Source: Candidatus Multivoradales bacterium (lineage in GTDB: Bacteria; Acidobacteriota; Thermoanaerobaculia; Multivoradales; J023). Taken from it: a stretch of 64,000 nt of DNA. Where the stretch lies: the NCBI GenBank assembly GCA_965248925.1, contig CBDFLE010000006.1, forward strand, positions 1,600,001 to 1,664,000. Reading direction: 5' to 3'. The notes under the pieces are model-generated. The model was not told the origin of the DNA, did no database searches, and was given only the letters and a program-made list of their open reading frames with translations. The translations under genes were made by a program, and so were the position numbers. The first letter of the stretch is position 1; each line of letters starts with the position of its first letter. This document shows positions 2,002-24,467 of the stretch, piece by piece.

Positions 2002-2548
2002 ATGCCGGTCGACGCTATTCTCGATACGGATGTGGTGATCTAGCACCTCCGTGGCCATCCATCCATCGTCGAGCAAGTCACAGAACTCGCCGGGCACGCT
2101 AACACTCGGAGTGTCGGCAATTACCCGCGCCGAAGTCATCCTCGGAATGCGAGATTCTGAGAGAGCATCCACCTTCGAACTGCTGGACTCGCTCCGCAAG
2201 TTGACGGTAGACGCTTCAATCGCCGACCGAGCGGGTGAGATCATCCGTGATTTCCGCCGCCGCGGTATCACTCTGCACCTACCCGATGCCTTGATTGGCG
2301 CCACCGCAATTCTCGCCTCTGCGCCCCTGCTCACCGGCAACGCCCGCCACTATCCAAGCCCAGATCGAGCTGAGAGAACTCGCCATCTAGTGCAGCGCGT
2401 TCCACAGCTGGCTCTACGATTTCGAGACCCGGCAGAAGAAGTGTCTGGCACCTCCTCCGGCAGCACCTCCTCCGGCAGTGACGTCACGCCGCGGGATACC
2501 TTCGATCATCGCGGCCTCGCAGGAAGAAATAGGTTGAAGAACAAGTGA
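2002..2548 (+). pseudogene. VapC/PIN toxin pseudogene
   Basis: ATG 2002 gives MPVDAILDTDVVI*HLRG (in-frame TAG 2041-2043), then a frameshift near 2090 into VSAITRAEV...DALIGATA...LLTGNARHY; PIN homology ends near 2360. Confidence 0.75.
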
Positions 2549-2674
2549 TCAGATTCGGGGTTCATTCTCGCCTCTTCTACCTAGAAGGCGTTCGAGCCGC
2601 CTTGGAAGTTACAACACGGTGCGGGCAAATTGACTGCCCTTTTCACCAATACGTCCCAGATGAGGTCTTCGGCA

Positions 2675-4110
2675 ATGCGTTCTGAACTCTTGAAAATTCT
2701 GACTCTCACCGGTTGCATTCTATCCTTGTCGTCGCCGACCCGCGCTGCTGACGACATCTTTATCGTGCCTCAGCCAACAGGGTCCTTGCCTGTCTCTTTC
2801 GAGATTCAAGATCCGGAGTTTTGAGCAACGACGGCCAAGGTGCCGAGGTCGTATCCTTCACCACCACCAGCCGCGGCACCCTGGAGCGAGGTGGAAGCGG
2901 ATTCGTCTACCACCCGGAGGCCGAGTTCTGGAGCAAGGGAACGGACTTCTTCAGTTACAGATTCGATCAGCTGCCGGAGGAATCGGCGATCGTTTTTCTT
3001 CTGGCCGATCCACTGTCGGAGCCGACGATGGTGATTGATCTGGAGCTGGAGCTGGAGCTACCCATCCGGCTCACCGCCCGCCAGGGCACCCTGGCCGCCC
3101 AGGGCAACGTCGACCGTCTCGGCTTGGGAACGGAGGCCGAAAGTTCCTTCGTCTCGGCTATGCTCCGCAAACCGGTCAAGCCTGCCGGCAACAAGGTCAC
3201 GACCGGTCTCAATCCCGGCCAAATGACTCTCATCAACGGTGAGGAGGTCACCTTCGCCAGCATCGGCCAACTAGATTTGGTGGTCGGCTTCGACGGCACT
3301 TCTTACTCGCTCAAAGCCCGGCGTAGCTCCACTGGCGAAACCCCCATTTCAACCCTCTTGCAGCAGAGTCCACAGTCGGTCGCTGCTCGCTGGTGGAGTT
3401 CGGGCGCAACAGCGGACCGCGATCGCGGACTCATCTTGCAGGTCGGTAACCGAGTCGCTGCCAGCCTGCCCGACGCCAAGCGCTTCGATGACCCTTCGCC
3501 GACCATCGAGCTGCGCTTCGGGGCACTGAGCCTAGGGCCAGGCGCTTCGGGGCTCCTCGCCTTGGACGGCATCGAGGCTTGGATCGAGCCGGCGAGTTCG
3601 CCACACCTGCTGCCAATATTCGCCGACGGCGTCGAGAGAGCTGGTCTCGACGCCTGGGCTGCCACCACTGGCAACCTCGCGGTCACCGGTCTAGCAGCGA
3701 TCAGCGGCAACCTGGGAATCGACGTTGCCGGCCCCTTCCCAGCCTACCTGGAAGCCCCTTCGGTGGGCGGTCTGCCCCGTTACCGTGCCCGTTTCAGCTT
3801 CGATCCGGCCCAGCTCAGTTGGACGGCTGGCGATGCAACCACCATTTTGGAGGGCATCGATGAGCACAGCTCAGAGACCCTCTTCATCGTCGAGCTACGT
3901 TGGTGGTCAGCCGACGACACCAGCAGCGATGACGGCGGCTTGAGAGTCTGGCTCGACGATGGCTCCGGCGGCGGCAATCAACTGATCGGCGAGGTTTCGA
4001 ATCTGGCCAACAGCTCGCAAGACCTCGGCGAAGTGCGCTTTGGCGCCATCGATCCCCAAGGCACGGCTGACGGTCCACTGTACCTCGACGACCTCGAGTC
4101 TTGGCACTAG
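2675..4110 (+). CDS. Secreted protein with cadherin/Ig-like N-terminus, split by a 1-nt frameshift at about 2820
   Basis: Signal peptide and AADD in ORF 2675-2824; one extra T in GAGTTTTGAGC gives E-F-L-S-N-D, joining ORF 2821-4110 (FVYHP..GTDFFSY Ig-like motif, IFADGVE motif). Confidence 0.55.
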
Positions 4111-17262: not shown

Positions 17263-17492
17263 GCGTGTGGACCGCGGCCAGCCTTTGCCCGTCCCAGCCC
17301 CCACTTTTCCAGCAGCCACAGAGAAGCGAGTGTCGCCACCCCAAGCCACGACTGTAGGCTGACCGACTGCCCCCGTGAGAGCTCCAGCGAGGGCCACATC
17401 GCGATTAGCAAGACCACCAAGCAGCCGGTCGACAGCAGGATTCCGAGCAAGAAGCAGCCGAGACTGGAGAGCCCGACGATCAATCTCGACAC
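17250..17492 (-). CDS. Small two-TM membrane protein
   Basis: Two hydrophobic stretches; start overlaps the end of the upstream lectin gene. Confidence 0.4.
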   Translation of the reverse strand: MSRLIVGLSSLGCFLLGILLSTGCLVVLLIAMWPSLELSRGQSVSLQSWLGVATLASLWLLEKWGLGRAKAGRGPHAQKR

Positions 17493-18754
17493 TGGCCCGG
17501 CAAGCTGACTGAATAGCGCCCATTGGCACTATAAGTGGCAGCGACATGCCCCACCCCGCCACCGACAAATGTCCACTCGACCACCCCGGTTGCGGCCCCG
17601 AGGTCGAGAGAGGCGGCGGTGATCGACGCAGCGTGCGGAGCGACAATCTCGATCGTCTTGATGAAATTGCCAGCCTCGTCGAAGACCTCGCCGATGGCGA
17701 GCAAGGCAGTGCGACCGCCCTCGACGGCGTAGAAGTCAAACACCGTACCGCCGCTAAAGCCACCGCCGACCAAGAACCGCGTATCCCAGCGGCGGCACAA
17801 CGCCGGTGGACTCGACCAGCTGCCTTTGCGAGTCAGCAAGCCACCGCTGGCAAAGTTCTCCTGAGAATCGAGGGAAAAGTAGTCGGCGTAAATTGGCGGG
17901 CTGTCGACCGGATCAAGGGTCTCCGGATCGAAGGCGTCGACAGTCAGAAAGCCCCGGAAAACAAAGTCAAGCTGCCGCAGGTTGAGGGTCGAAACCCCAC
18001 CGGCAGCCAGCTCGACGGTGATCGTCTTCTGCGGACTGACCGAAGGAGTCTGCTCCCAGAAGAGGCTCAAACGGAGGGTCAAGGGTGATTCCCCGGCATT
18101 GCGTATCGCCAACAGAGTACTCTTCGGGCCACCTCCACCATCGAATCTGAAGTACGGAAGCAGCAGCTGATCCCGTGGCGCGGATGGGAAAGACCAACGT
18201 TGATTCACGTCGCCATGACAGGGAAATACGATCAACGATGTTCCATTGGCCGTTCCTTCCTGAAACACATCGAGGCATTCGTCCGTTGAAAACCGCTTGA
18301 GCTGGAAATCGTCGGGAAAGGAGCCGACAATCTCCCAGTCTAGTGCTTCAGTACCCACCCGGCAATTGCGCAGCACCATCTCCGAGTAGCCAGAGGCGCC
18401 AACCGCCCCGGGAACCAAGCAGGTATCATCCAAGCCCCGAATTCCGATATTGCCGAAGCCGTCGGTGACCAGATCCCACTGTTGATTGTCCTCGCCATGG
18501 CATCCATAGAGCACCACCGGCGTGCCCACGGCAGCGTCTCCACCGAGGATATCCACACACTTGCCACCCACCCCGAGCAGCGGACCCGAGCGCAGCGACA
18601 GAAAAGCTGATGGTTGTGCCGGGTGCTTCGCCTGACCAACAGCAGGCAACCCCAGCCAGCAGAGAGTCACGGTCAAGCAGCCCAACGCCAGTCCACAGAC
18701 TTGGCCAAGGCATGATCGAGGTGAGAAAGAGTACATCGATGGGTAGTGCTTCAT
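17480..18754 (-). CDS. Secreted ricin-B (beta-trefoil) lectin domain protein
   Basis: GKCVDI..CHGEDNQQW and CLDV..CHGDVNQRW (QxW repeats) after a signal peptide; unknown C-terminal domain. Confidence 0.8.
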   Translation of the reverse strand: MKHYPSMYSFSPRSCLGQVCGLALGCLTVTLCWLGLPAVGQAKHPAQPSAFLSLRSGPLLGVGGKCVDILGGDAAVGTPVVLYGCHGEDNQQWDLVTDGFGNIGIRGLDDTCLVPGAVGASGYSEMVLRNCRVGTEALDWEIVGSFPDDFQLKRFSTDECLDVFQEGTANGTSLIVFPCHGDVNQRWSFPSAPRDQLLLPYFRFDGGGGPKSTLLAIRNAGESPLTLRLSLFWEQTPSVSPQKTITVELAAGGVSTLNLRQLDFVFRGFLTVDAFDPETLDPVDSPPIYADYFSLDSQENFASGGLLTRKGSWSSPPALCRRWDTRFLVGGGFSGGTVFDFYAVEGGRTALLAIGEVFDEAGNFIKTIEIVAPHAASITAASLDLGAATGVVEWTFVGGGVGHVAATYSANGRYSVSLPGQCRD

Positions 18755-18892: not shown

Positions 18893-19392
18893 TTAAGAGA
18901 CTTCTTCCGAGACCAGGCCCGCCTCTGACCTCAGCTCCGCCTGCTCAACACCTGGGCGGTTGCTCACTTGTTGAGCAGCGTATTCGGCCATCGGGTAGGG
19001 GAAACTCTCCAGCAATCGGAGTGGAAGGAGGCCAATGCACACGTCTCGCGTAAGACGTCGCCGTACCCCGTCCCATCTAGCGGCCCGATCTGCTGCATGG
19101 TGATTCTCAAGAGGAGATCCACCATGCAGCAACGAATCGCGAGCTGTCGTCATCAGGTCGAGATCCACTTAGGCAGCCGCCGAGGTCGCGGCGACCTTCT
19201 ACAGCCTGACCGGGTGTGCCACGCTCGGCGGCGGCGAGCCCAATGCGTACCGATTCAAGGCGCCGCGAGCGGCTCTCGAAAGGCCCGGCACTACCACCCT
19301 GCCAGCCCGACCCGGCGAAAGACCAGCGCCAAACTGATCTTCCCTCTTCGAATCTGAGGCCGCTGTCAAGGCTTGGCAAGGAGAACTCTTAA
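18893..19392 (+). mobile_element. Degenerate IS66-like remnant
   Basis: Frame 19182-19337 reads EVAATFYSLTGCATLGGGEPNAY..ALERPGTTTLP, resembling an IS66 TnpC C-terminus; short imperfect IRs TTAAGAG (18893) and CTCTTAA (19386-19392). Confidence 0.45.
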
Positions 19393-19484
19393 GCCTAGGC
19401 CGTAGAATGTACATTCGGACCAGCCGCTCGCTCCGTACTAAGAGCCGTTGGCGGCTTACTATCAATTCGGAGTACAGCGCTGCC

Positions 19485-19826
19485 CTAATCGAACAAATGC
19501 ACAACGAGTTTGAACAATCTCTCAGCCGATCCGAGCAGTGTACCCACATAGAACCCCAAAACAAATTCCGGAAATATGAAGCCGAGCAGGGCGGACCCCA
19601 GGGACATCCACTTGAATACGTTCAGCGCAGAGTTCGGTGTTTGCCAGGCAGCGACGAGCAGAATTAATAACCCATAAATCCCCAAAGCAAAGAAGACAGC
19701 AGAGACGGCGCCGATAGCACCCAGCAGTCTGAACATGCAGCCTGGAGATTTCTTCTCTTCAGCCTCCGCCGGGCCGCTCCCGTTGGCAACCTCTTGATCT
19801 TGCTGCTTCATGATTCCGATCTCCAT
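19485..19826 (-). CDS. Small membrane protein
   Basis: Two to three hydrophobic segments; lower GC; co-oriented with the upstream gene. Confidence 0.55.
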   Translation of the reverse strand: MEIGIMKQQDQEVANGSGPAEAEEKKSPGCMFRLLGAIGAVSAVFFALGIYGLLILLVAAWQTPNSALNVFKWMSLGSALLGFIFPEFVLGFYVGTLLGSAERLFKLVVHLFD

Positions 19827-19850
19827 TGTCTATCAGGACTTATCGTCTAG

Positions 19851-21155
19851 CTATGAATCCGAATTCTCTTCCAGAGCCTCCCGGAGGCTCTTCGGCCGCA
19901 TATCCACCCACACCTCTTCGATGTAGTCGAGGCACTCTTGTTTGCTCCCGGTCTTGCCGACCCTCCTCCAGCCAGAAGGAACCTCTTGATCCGCCGGCCA
20001 TATGGAATACTGCTCTTCTTCGTTCAAGACCACGACGTAGACTGTCTCGGCTTCCGTGGTCTCACCAGTGAAGTCCCCACCGCGATCGAGATTCTCAGCC
20101 AGCTGGCCCGTAGCGGCTAGATGTGCCAGTAAAGACACCCGCTGAATGTTGTCGACCGATTCCTCCCCGCCGAGCATCCATTCCGTAATCCAGTCGTAGA
20201 CCCAGCCGTCTTCGAGCGAGATCCCTAGATCTCGAAGCTGGAGTAAGGTGCGTGCCCGAAAGAACATTGCCGGCGAGTCGTATATGATTCGGCGCCAGCT
20301 CTCCACATCGTCAGCGAGTTCCCACAGCTCATTTGAACTCGTTTCGAGGAAGAGAAACTTCCCGTCCGAATCCCGCAACATGAGGTCTCCGAAAGCCGTG
20401 ATGCGAAATATTTCCACATCAGAGCCCACTCGCCAACGCCAAGACTCCAGCCAGTCGCCCTTTTCAGCAGCCTCGAAGGGAATGAAGAGATCGCCAGCAG
20501 CGTCATCAAGCGCCTCGGCACCAAGGTCCGCTGTGATAAGTCGAATCTCGTCATAACCAACGCCCGCCAGGACTAAATTGTCTTGATACAGTACCGGCTG
20601 GTAACCAACGGCCTCGATATCGAACGCGCTATGCCAGGGGAAGTTCCCCGACTTGTCAGGCCAGTACAGTTGAACCACCGGAAAGCTGTTGCCGCGGTAG
20701 TAACCTAAAGCTGTCCCGAGGAAACTCGCAAACCACTTGGGAAGGACACTCCGCACCCTGGCTGGATAGTCACCAAACGCCCCATCGATCGAGTCTCCAG
20801 CATTGAATTTCTCACCACTGGAAATTCTCTTGACCAAGGATTTGACCACACCACCCAGGGGCACAGGATCCTCGCTCGTTGCAAAGACGAGAATCTCAGG
20901 GTGCTTAAAAGACTCCCAAAGGCCGATGGTGAAGAGAAATCCCGCCCTCCCCTCCCCTGGAACTGCAACCATATGCCAGCCATGCTCGGCAATGTCCGCA
21001 CGGACCCTGGCGAGAATCTGGCTTATTTCATCCTCTTCACCGCTGGCAAGCTGCCCCGGCACCGACTCTTGCTGACCTAGCAAAGGCCTGCGGATCACCA
21101 ACAGCCAACAAACCATCACGATCGCGAAGACCACCAAGGTCAATCCTATTCGCAT
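19851..21155 (-). CDS. Membrane-anchored DUF4262 + Tdi1/DUF1851-like + MbtH-like fusion
   Basis: N-terminal TM; HGWHMVAV..FLFTIGLWESFKHPEILVF (DUF4262-like); WRWRVG..ITAFGDLML..LGGEESVDNI (Tdi1-like); C-terminal NEEEQYSIWP..VPSGW..CLDYIEEVWVDMRPKSL (MbtH signature). RBS GGGAG. Confidence 0.8.
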   Translation of the reverse strand: MRIGLTLVVFAIVMVCWLLVIRRPLLGQQESVPGQLASGEEDEISQILARVRADIAEHGWHMVAVPGEGRAGFLFTIGLWESFKHPEILVFATSEDPVPLGGVVKSLVKRISSGEKFNAGDSIDGAFGDYPARVRSVLPKWFASFLGTALGYYRGNSFPVVQLYWPDKSGNFPWHSAFDIEAVGYQPVLYQDNLVLAGVGYDEIRLITADLGAEALDDAAGDLFIPFEAAEKGDWLESWRWRVGSDVEIFRITAFGDLMLRDSDGKFLFLETSSNELWELADDVESWRRIIYDSPAMFFRARTLLQLRDLGISLEDGWVYDWITEWMLGGEESVDNIQRVSLLAHLAATGQLAENLDRGGDFTGETTEAETVYVVVLNEEEQYSIWPADQEVPSGWRRVGKTGSKQECLDYIEEVWVDMRPKSLREALEENSDS

Positions 21156-21523
21156 ACTCTACTCCCTTAGGTTCAGGTAGGAGATTCACTCCCCCATCCT
21201 TCTATAGGCGTTGCCAAGCCCGCAAAAGTTACAGCCTTCTTGAGACCCAACGACCAGCACTCCAGCAAACTCATCATGGTCCCCACGTTGTCAGTGCCCA
21301 ACAACCAAGATTACGCTGTAGAGACATCGAACTGCGCCTGGCGAGGGGAAGTGTCTCGGATCTCTGGGGTTGATCGGTAGAGCAAGAGCGATGCCAGTCG
21401 GCAGCCTCGCCGCCCAACCCTTGTAACAGCTAGGGCTAGCGATATTGAGCGGATTTAGGGGAGCCATTTCAGTCGACCAAACTGCTCAGAAGCTGAGCAC
21501 TTGCGCAGACTCTGCGCAGCCGC

Positions 21524-22774
21524 TCAGTGATCGAGGCTGGCGGCAAAGAAGCTCCTGAAACCGGGTGGGAAGTAGGGCCCCTGGGGCCGCAAGTCGGGGT
21601 CTGCTGCGAAGCTGGCGGCGGCGAGACGCTGCGCGCTCGCCAGCCGCTTGCTGGACTCTGCCGGGCGCAGCTGGGCGAGGGCGAAGTGAGCGGCGGCAGC
21701 GAACAGGCGGGCCTGCGCTCGCGATCTGGGACGCTCGAAGTCAGCACTGTCAGCCCGCGCCAACAGACTGTCGTAACGGCCCTCGAAATAGGCACTGGCC
21801 AATGCCATCAACCCGGTGGGTAGGCGTCTATCTTGGGTCTGACCTCGCAGCTGTTCGAGCTGTGAGTGCGAGGCATTGATTCGCTGTAGTTCTGCCTCTA
21901 GCTCGCTGGCGGTGTTCACCGACGGCCTTGGATGAGTGGTGAGCCGATCGGCACGGGTGATGGCTGTGGTCAGCTCTTGCACCAGACTCGATGGCAAGGG
22001 CAGCTGGTCAGACGCGAAGTGCTGCCGACTCTGCTCAGCCAGCTCGGCCAGCTGCCGGCCGGCAGCTGCTACTTGGCTTTGCAGAGCTTCTACTTCTTGC
22101 AGCAAGGCAGCTTCCACTTGGTCTCTCAGCTGGTTGGCTTGCTGTTGCAGCTGCACCAACTCGGGCAAGGCTTGGGCTAGACGGCTCAACTCGCTCGCCG
22201 CCAGCGCCTGGTCGGTGAGGCGATCGAAGGCCGCTCGCAGTTGGGCTCGGCGCGCCACCTGGTCCACCGGCCAGCGGGCGGAACTCACTCGCCAACGATC
22301 CTCGAGCCGATCGAGCTGACGCCGGGCGGTCGAGCGCGCCTGCTCGAGCCGTTGACGGATTTCCGGCAACAGTGTTTCCTCGCATTGCCGACGCTCAGCC
22401 AGCAAACCGGTGGCTGCCGGAGATTGCGCCACCACCGCTTGCCGATCCGCTTCTCGCCAGGCCGCCAAGGCGGCTGCGAAATCGCCCAAGCGACACTGAC
22501 AGAGGCCGAGGTAGAAGTGCGGCAAGTAGGGCTCGAAGCGCATGCCATAGGGGCGGGTCACCAAGCTGGCCGAAGCCTCTGGCCGGCGCGCCGCGGTCGC
22601 TGTCAGCAGGTTCAGGGCCTCTTCCAGGTGGCCATAGCCGAGCTGCCGTAGGCCCTGCTCGTAGTCCCCGTAGCCACCATCGGCCGGTGCCGCCGAAGAC
22701 GCCCCCAGGCCGAGCCAGGCAACCACCAACCACCAACTCAAGAAGTTGCGCGCGAAGCCCTCCTGGCCTACCAT
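21524..22774 (-). CDS. Secreted TPR/coiled-coil protein
   Basis: Signal peptide, PYLPHFYLGLC TPR-like segment, long helical region; overlaps the kinase stop. Confidence 0.6.
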   Translation of the reverse strand: MVGQEGFARNFLSWWLVVAWLGLGASSAAPADGGYGDYEQGLRQLGYGHLEEALNLLTATAARRPEASASLVTRPYGMRFEPYLPHFYLGLCQCRLGDFAAALAAWREADRQAVVAQSPAATGLLAERRQCEETLLPEIRQRLEQARSTARRQLDRLEDRWRVSSARWPVDQVARRAQLRAAFDRLTDQALAASELSRLAQALPELVQLQQQANQLRDQVEAALLQEVEALQSQVAAAGRQLAELAEQSRQHFASDQLPLPSSLVQELTTAITRADRLTTHPRPSVNTASELEAELQRINASHSQLEQLRGQTQDRRLPTGLMALASAYFEGRYDSLLARADSADFERPRSRAQARLFAAAAHFALAQLRPAESSKRLASAQRLAAASFAADPDLRPQGPYFPPGFRSFFAASLDH

Positions 22775-24342
22775 CCGGTGCTCCTGAAATACTCCAGTGG
22801 ATCTCTACTTGGGAACTCGACACGAACCAGCGCCAACTGCTCGGCGACTACCTGCAGCTCGATCCGCCGGCGCCCACCGCCACCGCTGGCCAACACCACC
22901 GCCCGGTAGCTGCCGACCGGCAGCTCAAACTGGCATGGGGTCTCACAGCCATCTGGCAACAGCTGCACCTGGCCACTGGCATCACCCAGCTCCATCACTC
23001 TTCCCCACGGAACCGCCTCGACGATCACCCGGCCCAATACTTCGTCGGCCAGTTCCGGCTCGCCGACAGGCACGGGACGGATCAGCTCCGCCTGGGGCCC
23101 GCGCCCGGCGACTTCGTCCGCCGCCTGCCAACCGAGCCCGACCGAAAGATCCGGCTTGGGTCCAGGGTTGCGCAAGGTCGGCACCATGGTCGGCACCCAC
23201 CAGCTGCCCAGAGCCACCGCGAAGGCAAAGCCCAGCGCTAGCAGAATCACCCAACTGCCCCGCCGGGCCAACGACCCCAGATCTTCTGCACTCGCCACCA
23301 AGCCCGTCTCCTGACCGACGGTGTCAGTTCTCGCGCCCCAGGAATCGCTGGCCACGGTGGTAGCGGTCGAGAAACCCGCCGGGGCTATGTCGGCGGACTC
23401 CGCATCTGTCCTCGGCAATGCCGCGCGGACCTGCTCCAAGGCTTCGGCCAAGCCCTGGGCACTGGCGATTCGCCGGCTGGGCTCGAGCGCCATCGCTTGT
23501 TCGACCACCTCCACCAGTGGCTCTGGCAGCGACGGTTGCAGCTGCGCCAGGGGCTCCAACTGCTGCCCCCGCCAGCGCCGCAACGCCGCCATGGGCTGGC
23601 GGCCGCCAAGCAGCTCGTAAAGGGTAGCGCCGCAGGCGTAGACATCGCTCCAAGGACCGACCGGGCCACCGATTTCGCAGTACATCTCGGCCGCGGCATA
23701 GCCATGGGTGAGAGAAAAGGCACGCTGGCCAACGCTGTCGCCCACCGCCACCCGCGCCGCGCCGTAGTCGAGCAGCAAGATCTCGCCATCGTCAGTGAGA
23801 TAGATGTTGGGAGGCTTGATATCGCAGTGCAACACATCTTTGGCATGCGTCGCCTCAAGACCGTGCAACACCGCCACCAGGGTTTGCAACGCCGTCGGCC
23901 AAGGCAGCCGACCGCCAACCCGGTGCACATACTGAGCCAAAGAAGCACCACGGTGATACTCCATCACCAAGTAGGCGGTACCGTTCTCCTCGAAGAAATT
24001 GAGCACCTTGACCACATTGGGATGGCGCAGGCTGGCCAGCACCCTCGCTTCGGTCAGGAAGCGGCCCACGGCAAGACCAAACTTCCCTTCGCTACCCACT
24101 CCTCGCGACTCGACCGCCACCCCGTCACTGGCCCGAGCCACCAACCGACGGGGCAAGAATTCCTTGATCGCCACCTGCAAACGCAAAGTGGCATCCCAGC
24201 CTAAGTAGGTGATGCCGAAGCCACCAGGATGGCCGAGGATATTGCCGATCAGATACCTATTGAAAAGCCGATGCCGCAGTGGCAAGGACTCCGCCGGTCG
24301 ATCATTCGCCGCGCTGAAGAATTCGTCTGCTGGTTGCTCCAT
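22768..24342 (-). CDS. Membrane Ser/Thr protein kinase with C-terminal PEGA-like domain
   Basis: [37 protein letters not shown]; TM helix; [19 protein letters not shown]. Start at MEQPAD is a choice. Confidence 0.85.
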
Positions 24343-24467
24343 GGTGCAGGCCGAGGATATCCGACCCAAAGGCTGCCAGGGGCGGCAGCAGCCTGGCAGC
24401 GCTGCAACTGCGATATAACTTACTCCTCTATGCAACTCCCCACCCAGACCGCCGAGGACCGCCGCCG

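Follow-up and report, generated by a model that had tools for sequence, protein, structure and literature searches.

MbtH-like proteins are seen as small free helpers of the adenylation (A) domains of nonribosomal peptide synthetases (NRPSs), or as parts of the synthetases themselves. The free proteins, among them PA2412, YbdZ, FscK and Rv2377c, are standalone polypeptides of ~60-80 amino acids, usually encoded in NRPS clusters, and the family signature contains three invariant tryptophans in the motifs SxWP, PxGW and WxDxRP. Here, we describe a 434-amino-acid predicted membrane protein in which an MbtH-like domain makes up the C-terminal 70 residues, preceded by an N-terminal hydrophobic helix, a DUF4262 domain and a domain resembling the type VI secretion system (T6SS) immunity protein Tdi1. 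Its gene (19851..21155, minus strand, ATG start) lies far from NRPS genes in a 64,000-nucleotide stretch of the genome of Candidatus Multivoradales bacterium (Acidobacteriota; GCA_965248925.1, contig CBDFLE010000006.1, here C6, positions 1600001-1664000), hereafter the window. The C-terminal domain shares with the free proteins the Pfam family, the fold, the three-tryptophan signature and the face predicted to bind A domains. By profile, signature and fold it is a member of the MbtH family; the whole protein is not a usual MbtH-like protein. No description of the anchor-DUF4262-Tdi1-MbtH architecture was found in the literature searched, part of which was judged from titles and abstracts; the papers so judged dealt with fusions of the NRPS type or with unrelated subjects. 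The original prediction, made by a model from the letters of this DNA, had not recognised it either.

Several described systems share parts of this arrangement. In SlgN1 and ObiF1 (4gr4/4gr5 and 6n8e, all among our fold matches), MbtH is likewise fused to a larger protein, but the partner there is the adenylating enzyme itself, whereas here MbtH is joined to a membrane anchor and to two immunity-type folds that are not enzymes. Tdi1 and Tdi2 (6itw, 8g0k_B, 8fzz_B) are T6SS immunity proteins against Ntox15 (Tde) DNases. The whole fold is shared with our protein (Z 10.6-12.8), but at 14-17% identity, with a Pfam score under the cut-off, no adjacent toxin, and a position between two other domains behind an anchor. 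Imm-SuFu and other polyimmunity proteins carry several immunity-type folds in one polypeptide, as does the protein described here. In the 300,000 characters available of Zhang et al. 2012 (PMC3482391), SuFu-type domains are common in polyimmunity fusions and present in Acidobacteria, and DUF4262, DUF1851, GAD-like and MbtH have 0 occurrences. Our protein differs from Imm-SuFu in lacking a SUFU Pfam match, in reaching only Z 8.0 at 8% identity and in lying outside any polyimmunity locus. The likeness to Tdi1 and to Imm-SuFu is one of fold only, without the genomic context of either. PvdA, according to the portion of PMC11172790 available, is anchored in the membrane by its N-terminus, interacts with the pyoverdine NRPSs and has been put forward as the inner-membrane tether of the "siderosome"; the same portion describes how PvdL reaches the membrane as still open. 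Our protein resembles PvdA in having an N-terminal hydrophobic anchor and, as an accessory protein, in a predicted ability to bind NRPSs. PvdA, however, is an ornithine hydroxylase within one pathway, whereas here no recognised enzyme domain is present and a generic MbtH module would do the binding.

A Pfam scan of the protein at E up to 1 returned only DUF4262 (PF14081; residues 54-178, E 6.2e-32, 110.9 bits against a cut-off of 28), MbtH (PF03621; residues 367-414, E 3.6e-22, 78 bits against a cut-off of 27) and T6SS_Tdi1_C (residues 308-352, E 0.0043, 17.3 bits, under the cut-off of 27.4). Scans against NCBIfam and against the PADLOC defence-system models gave no match, and an ESM Atlas query with residues 38-358 gave no usable match. 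The AlphaFold2 (AF2) model, built with 21 homologues as input, had a mean predicted local distance difference test score (pLDDT) of 84.2 and a predicted template modelling score (pTM) of 0.75, with residues 22-36, 176-182 and 363-367 as low-confidence stretches. Domain boundaries were set by structure, using Foldseek matches of this model that were then re-aligned to give Z scores and root-mean-square deviations (rmsd). The junction near position 20060, which the original prediction had singled out for scrutiny, corresponds to the linker (residues ~358-366) that joins the Tdi1-like domain to MbtH.

The MbtH-like domain is canonical. It aligns to PA2412 (2pst) with Z 11.0 and an rmsd of 0.7 over 61 of 61 residues at 57% identity, and its signature is complete (S384-I-W386-P387, P393-S-G-W396 and W416-V-D-M-R-P421), all three tryptophans being present as originally read. 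Across the family, the serine of SxWP and the second tryptophan occur in 27 of 27 fused domains, the first tryptophan in 23/27 and the third in 24/27; each of these four residues occurs in 41/41 free MbtH proteins. From these counts, the fused domains appear to be constrained nearly, though not fully, like free MbtH proteins.

The original prediction had pointed out that the window contains no NRPS, which is true (0 of the genome's 75 condensation and 68 adenylation matches fall within it) but misleading, as the genome is rich in NRPS genes. These matches lie in a few giant clusters, and the closest on the same contig are >1 Mb away from the gene. The clusters are located at C6:341-376 kb, C6:5.11-5.18 Mb, C5:1.52-1.53 Mb and C5:2.19-2.30 Mb, with open frames of up to 19,437 amino acids. 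The genome, which is 96.9% complete, has only 2 MbtH matches. Its sole free MbtH (C6:800450-800608; locus L002, 1399-1737 on the plus strand, with 2300-3061 and 318-1079 on the minus strand) is 67% identical to the fused domain and adjoins genes for an Sfp-type phosphopantetheinyl transferase (PPTase) and a LuxR-type regulator. None of the NRPS clusters is near, and the arrangement looks like a shared NRPS support locus.

We co-folded residues 195-434, comprising the Tdi1-like and MbtH domains, with an A domain from the same genome (P0174, C6:5128312-5129880). The interaction prediction score from aligned errors (ipSAE) was 0.80 (0.79, 0.81 and 0.80 in the individual runs), compared to 0.00 for the best of 3 controls; of 157 solved complexes, 116 attain the mark applied to this score, and of 215 mismatched pairs, 2 do. 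Contacts agreed between runs to at least 75%, and partner pLDDT was at least 76. The confident predicted interface lay within MbtH residues 375-431 only, including S384, W386, P387, W396 and W416, and faced A-domain residues 370-395. The MbtH domain is predicted to dock on this A domain of the same genome through the canonical tryptophan face, which the Tdi1-like domain leaves free in these models.

MbtH-like domains were also encountered in other combinations. Three metagenomic proteins (P0022, P0023, P0060) have 2-4 MbtH repeats, separated by charged linkers that resemble coiled coils, ahead of a phage tail-collar domain; an NRPS role for these is not obvious. Small proteins with tandem double MbtH domains (P0055, P0057, P0058, P0061, P0064, P0071, P0075, P0077, P0078 and others) group separately on the MbtH tree, in a cluster of 17 domains. 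Further fusions include P0107, with a polytopic membrane N-terminus; P0128, with a signal-like N-terminus and an acidic linker; P0025, with a signal-like N-terminus and an unknown domain; and P0024, with a GNAT acetyltransferase. Membrane-linked MbtH recurs in unrelated architectures (P0107, P0128, P0052).

The middle of the protein consists of two domains that the original prediction called immunity-type. Residues 199-357 match 8g0k_B with Z 12.8 and an rmsd of 3.1 over 142 aligned residues at 17% identity, spanning residues 2-190 of its 193-residue chain, and match 8fzz_B and 6itw with Z 12.0 and 10.6; in the model, they form a complete Tdi1/Tdi2 immunity fold. Because T6SS_Tdi1_C was matched in 16 of 21 aligned family members (best E 1.3e-9) and the fold match covers the whole chain, the sub-cut-off call in our protein is supported. 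The setting of Tdi1 was absent: no Ntox15/Tde toxin gene neighbours the gene, and no T6SS sheath gene (VipB/TssC) was matched in the genome by a search whose control matched in E. coli. Ntox15 was not matched in the genome either, a weak negative since the Ntox15 control matched in no genome.

DUF4262 is more distant from its nearest structural relatives. In the full model, the domain (~38-188) matches the bacterial SUFU homologue 3k5j with Z 8.0 over 118 aligned residues at 8% identity. Folded alone from 45 sequences (pLDDT 96.6, pTM 0.90) and searched, independently of Foldseek, against 48,161 representative chains, it matched 3k5j once more (Z 8.0, rmsd 3.8), together with ZFYVE9 (Z 6.6) and four eukaryotic SUFU chains (Z 5.7-6.5), before a drop to Z 3.7; Foldseek itself gave nothing at E up to 0.001, its top rows being all SUFU. 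These models assign DUF4262 a SUFU-like fold, distantly, and the SUFU Pfam model (PF05076) does not match the protein at E up to 1. Six polar residues (H61, H85, E87, Q162, D167 and Q186) are conserved at 81-97% in 70 DUF4262 domains from outside the family, which is more suggestive of a ligand-binding, metal-binding or catalytic site than of a fast-evolving toxin-binding surface. Outside the family, DUF4262 is also found in tandem copies and in combination with DUF4265 or with Tdi1_C. At 15 of the 33 other DUF4262 loci with called genes, 81 open reading frames (ORFs) included no recognisable toxin or immunity family. Two of these loci in Bacteroidota metagenome-assembled genomes (MAGs), L034 and L055, have same-strand runs of 4-7 small ORFs without a Pfam match, reminiscent of polyimmunity arrays in appearance only. 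Given the lack of toxin or immunity neighbours and the conserved polar residues, DUF4262 owes the label "immunity-type" to its fold only. The label thus held for both middle domains as a description of fold, well for the Tdi1-like domain and distantly for DUF4262, and found no counterpart in the neighbouring genes.

The name DUF4262 has appeared in a different context. A preprint on Shedu, in the portion available, gives "DUF4262" as the PD-(D/E)xK hallmark of SduA (bioRxiv 10.1101/2023.08.10.552762). We rejected an SduA identity for our protein: PADLOC gave no SduA match, and the fold of Pfam DUF4262 is SUFU-like and not that of a nuclease. The label used for Shedu is presumably a slip for DUF4263.

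The architecture is conserved in a small family. A word-indexed protein search returned 25 proteins; apart from that of the window, 14 clusters combine DUF4262 with MbtH (41-55% identity, query coverage 85-99%), and 5 of the 25 are the same protein without MbtH. Among the 21 aligned members, DUF4262 is present in 20 and MbtH in 16. A Tdi1-like domain (Tdi1_C in P0021) and MbtH occur together without DUF4262 in P0021 and P0047. An exhaustive search of representatives gave 4934 proteins at an E-value limit of 0.001 and only 35 at 1e-30, indicating that the multi-domain family is small. All identified relatives come from Acidobacteriota MAGs, mostly of Thermoanaerobaculia. Among 301 sampled genomes of the window's class, the multi-domain protein was found in 5, all of one order, and 2 of these carriers, including the window's genome, have the MbtH-bearing form. 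A broader tally of 57/301 counts single-domain matches and includes two genomes flagged unpublished, neither of them among the 5 carriers. The family is patchy and was seen only in NRPS-rich genomes of the Acidobacteriota/Thermoanaerobaculia type. A metagenome scan with a Tdi1+MbtH alignment revealed no new fusion loci among the matches listed, all 80 retained loci fitting the MbtH part only (query ~135-240).

These relatives also bear on whether the gene is real. Positions 19400-21600 are spanned in one piece, with 0 differences, by contigs of 4 sequencing runs from one sample of one study, probably the assembly's own source. Together with the 14 clusters that share the architecture, these contigs exclude a misassembly or a unique chimera, either of which had been a worry of the original prediction. 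Its calls of a membrane anchor, a DUF4262-like domain, a Tdi1-like domain and an MbtH domain all hold, the middle two being backed by profile searches at the family level and by structure prediction.

The hydrophobic N-terminus is a predicted membrane anchor. Hydropathy reaches 3.09 over residues 5-21, which are followed by two arginines. In a survey of 36 family proteins, with signal-peptide calls made by eye, 24 have a strongly hydrophobic N-terminus; 19 of these have more lysine and arginine residues after the helix than before it (several have 4-5), in 2 the counts are equal, and in 3 the helix is followed by none. Hydrophobicity is weaker (hydropathy 1.3-1.9) at the N-terminus of 4 others (P0005, P0028, P0031, P0042), and the remaining 8, all MbtH-less, lack a hydrophobic N-terminus. 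By the positive-inside rule, lysine and arginine following the helix would place the domains of most members, including the window's protein, in the cytoplasm, with the C-terminus inside (C-in).

The history of the MbtH domain was followed on two trees. One was built from the core after trimming MbtH away (38 rows, 373 columns). On it, sister pairs with and without MbtH are found at supports of 94-100, among them the window's protein and P0010; some MbtH-less rows are metagenomic gene calls that may be truncated. A split gene does not explain the MbtH-less forms, as a six-frame search with the MbtH profile at E up to 1 found no domain at 12 MbtH-less loci (L016, L019-L029) and found one only at L014, L015, L017 and L018. 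The tree of MbtH domains (106 domains, 76 columns) is poorly resolved but places 19 of 27 fused domains together (Shimodaira-Hasegawa-like approximate likelihood ratio test 81). Constraining all 27 together gave a log-likelihood 49.4 above that of the free quick search and a p value of 0.908 in the approximately unbiased test (p-AU), so a single origin of the fused domains is not rejected. The simplest history suggested by these trees would be one fusion followed by repeated loss of MbtH.

We tentatively favour, at somewhat less than even chances, a role for the protein as a cytoplasm-facing membrane adaptor that tethers NRPS A domains. The N-terminal helix would hold the protein in the inner membrane with its domains in the cytoplasm, and the C-terminal MbtH would dock on A domains just as free MbtH-like proteins do. 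Docking would connect the megasynthetases with both the membrane and the SUFU-like/Tdi1-like module, a putative protein-binding unit of immunity-protein ancestry with its own ligand. The anchor-DUF4262-Tdi1 core would be the older, self-sufficient part, to which MbtH was added once and from which it was lost many times. Of the roles proposed by the original prediction for MbtH (decoy, sensor or membrane tether for adenylating enzymes), the tether fits best, given the canonical signature, the predicted docking on the genome's own A domain and the mostly C-in anchor. The abundance of A domains in a genome with a single free MbtH, the recurrence of membrane-linked MbtH in other architectures and the precedent of PvdA also speak for a tether. 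A stronger version, which we regard as unlikely, is that immunity folds have been co-opted for the dedicated task of organising nonribosomal peptide synthesis at the membrane. The protein would then be an NRPS anchor of general use, capturing whichever A domain depends on MbtH and keeping the assembly line at the inner membrane beside the core's ligand, for example an exporter or a self-protection factor.

Several observations weigh against a tether. The distribution of MbtH on the core tree requires 11 changes, of which well-supported branches force at least 8, and its clustering does not exceed that of shuffled labels (86 of 500). Repeated loss of MbtH from a retained core implies that the core works without it, which would make the link to NRPSs an accessory function of the core. 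The N-termini of the MbtH-bearing proteins P0012, P0013, P0021, P0028 and P0031, and likewise of P0047, resemble signal peptides or lipoboxes and precede acidic residues (AXA-type sites in P0012, P0013, P0021 and P0047, and a lipobox-like LAAC in P0031), and this minority would put its MbtH outside the cytoplasm. The first tryptophan is missing in 4 of 27 fused domains. Complexes of MbtH with A domains have been solved (5ja2, 6ea3, 4gr4), and the passing score of our co-fold may reflect likeness to these rather than a property of this copy. No NRPS gene lies beside the MbtH-bearing gene in the window or at 4 other MbtH-bearing loci. We also rejected co-occurrence with NRPSs as evidence: all 16 distinct carrier genomes have condensation domains, but so do NRPSs occur in 22/22 genomes of the relevant families in the order, only 5 of which carry the protein family, and the association is therefore confounded by phylogeny and does not discriminate.

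As the main alternative, the protein may be an orphan poly-immunity protein, which we consider somewhat unlikely. Its SUFU-like and Tdi1-like domains would neutralise the nuclease-type toxins of competitors, the gene would be an accessory, horizontally moving defence gene, and MbtH would be a third binding module or an unrelated add-on. The whole-chain Tdi1/Tdi2 fold, shared by profile with most aligned members, argues for this, as does the SUFU-like fold, Imm-SuFu being prominent in polyimmunity proteins in the available text of PMC3482391. The occurrence in 5 of 301 genomes of the class, the modular gain and loss of DUF4262 and MbtH, the absence of a conserved neighbour by gene calling across 14 related loci and the window (the close relatives L017 and L018 share a cyclophilin and a DUF900 hydrolase, the sole shared neighbours seen), the GC content below that of the flanks in the window and at 11 of 14 related loci, and the adjoining insertion sequence (IS) remnant also fit a mobile defence gene. 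However, no toxin or immunity family lies beside the gene in the window, and a Pfam scan of 31 flanking ORFs at 11 related loci found no toxin, immunity, T6SS or NRPS gene among a miscellaneous set (TPR, epimerase, alpha-2-macroglobulin, deacetylase, HTH). The searches for a T6SS sheath gene and, within its limits, for Ntox15 were likewise negative, as was that for toxin or immunity neighbours at the other DUF4262 loci. The conserved polar residues of DUF4262 are unlike an arms-race surface, a membrane anchor is unusual for immunity to nucleases, and a strictly canonical MbtH is left unexplained. The tether and the poly-immunity reading are not exclusive, as NRPS systems could have taken over a binding module that descends from immunity proteins.

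A neutral fusion, in which an unrelated gene for a membrane protein acquired a free MbtH gene at its 3' end and supplies MbtH activity without tethering or any tie to the DUF4262 and Tdi1-like domains, seems quite improbable to us. The repeated loss of MbtH from a retained core and the fusion of MbtH to unrelated partners elsewhere (tail-collar, GNAT, tandem copies) would be expected under it, and the genome retains a free MbtH beside the PPTase gene. Yet the fusion has been kept across proteins that are 41-55% identical, a single origin would imply long retention in many lineages, and P0021 and P0047 pair a Tdi1-like domain with MbtH in the absence of DUF4262. It is highly improbable, in our estimate, that the protein is exported, with a signal peptide or an N-in anchor, periplasmic domains and an MbtH fold that binds a partner other than NRPSs. 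The minority of signal-like and lipobox-like N-termini points in this direction, as do P0128 and P0025, other MbtH proteins with signal-like N-termini. Against export, the hydrophobic stretch here runs for 17 or more residues before the two arginines, 19 of the 24 strongly hydrophobic N-termini are more positive on the C side, 8 MbtH-less relatives lack a hydrophobic N-terminus, and the MbtH signature is that of cytoplasmic MbtH proteins.

Table 1. Features of the gene and of the adjoining low-GC stretch (positions in the window)
Feature	Position	Strand	Support or context
Whole gene: anchor, DUF4262, Tdi1-like, MbtH	19851..21155	-	ORF, Pfam, AF2 model, homologues
N-terminal hydrophobic helix, residues 2-21	21093..21152	-	hydropathy, AF2 helix 2-21, aligned hydrophobic N-termini in homologues
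DUF4262, Pfam residues 54-178, structural domain ~38-188	20622..20996	-	Pfam, domain model, conservation
Tdi1-like domain, residues 199-357 (GAD-like + DUF1851/PF08906 parts)	20085..20561	-	structure, family Pfam
MbtH-like domain, residues 363-432, W386/W396/W416	19860..20069	-	Pfam, 2pst fold, docking model
113-amino-acid ORF, three hydrophobic segments, same low-GC stretch	19485..19826	-	24 nt downstream of the gene
IS66-family remnant, internally deleted, two ends abutting	~19049-19191 + ~19180-19394		13 other genome sites

The gene lies in a stretch of low GC content (~0.55; 0.558 in the gene itself, compared to ~0.65 in the flanks) next to an IS66-family remnant, as originally noted (Table 1). 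The remnant lies ~460 bp past the 3' end of the gene. Its pieces match the other genome sites at 74-86% identity, in pairs ~2.2 kb apart, and a full copy of the IS encodes IS66 Orf2 and an IS66 DDE transposase; since the two ends abut here, the sequence is an internally deleted remnant. The intact element is ~2.4 kb long, and several full copies are present in the genome (e.g. C6:3729300-3732200, locus L013). The ORF of 113 amino acids between the gene and the remnant has no Pfam or PADLOC match, matched only itself among 5.8 billion clusters (62-198 amino acid range) and was not found beside homologues of the 434-residue protein. It is probably an orphan and not a partner, and may be a lineage-specific gene or no gene at all. 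A scan of 19000-21700 gave 0 promoter-like and 2 terminator-like sites, not above shuffled sequences.

Neighbouring genes in the window encode a FadL-type porin, a ricin-lectin protein, a coiled-coil/TPR protein and a Ser/Thr kinase. The kinase (22768-24435, minus strand) has a C-terminal extension and matches the PADLOC PD-T4-6 kinase models (best E 6.9e-52), probably through generic kinase similarity. The ricin-lectin gene (17480-18754, minus strand), just past the IS66 remnant and moderately low in GC, encodes a secreted-looking protein of 424 amino acids with a ricin-B lectin domain.

A conserved MbtH domain on an anchor with immunity-type folds suggests that MbtH-like proteins can also act as recruitment modules. 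As a candidate NRPS membrane tether, the protein is open to experimental test, and it gives DUF4262 its first functional lead. It bears on the positioning of NRPS assembly lines at the membrane and on the roles of the widespread but uncharacterised DUF4262 and Tdi1-like domains outside toxin-immunity pairs. The carriers are soil Acidobacteriota of the uncultured type with dozens of NRPS modules, and heterologous expression of their clusters may need accessory proteins of this sort. If the protein does organise nonribosomal peptide synthesis at the membrane, no tether of this kind would have been defined by sequence before it, and it would provide a direct handle on how megasynthetases that have no transmembrane segments reach the membrane.

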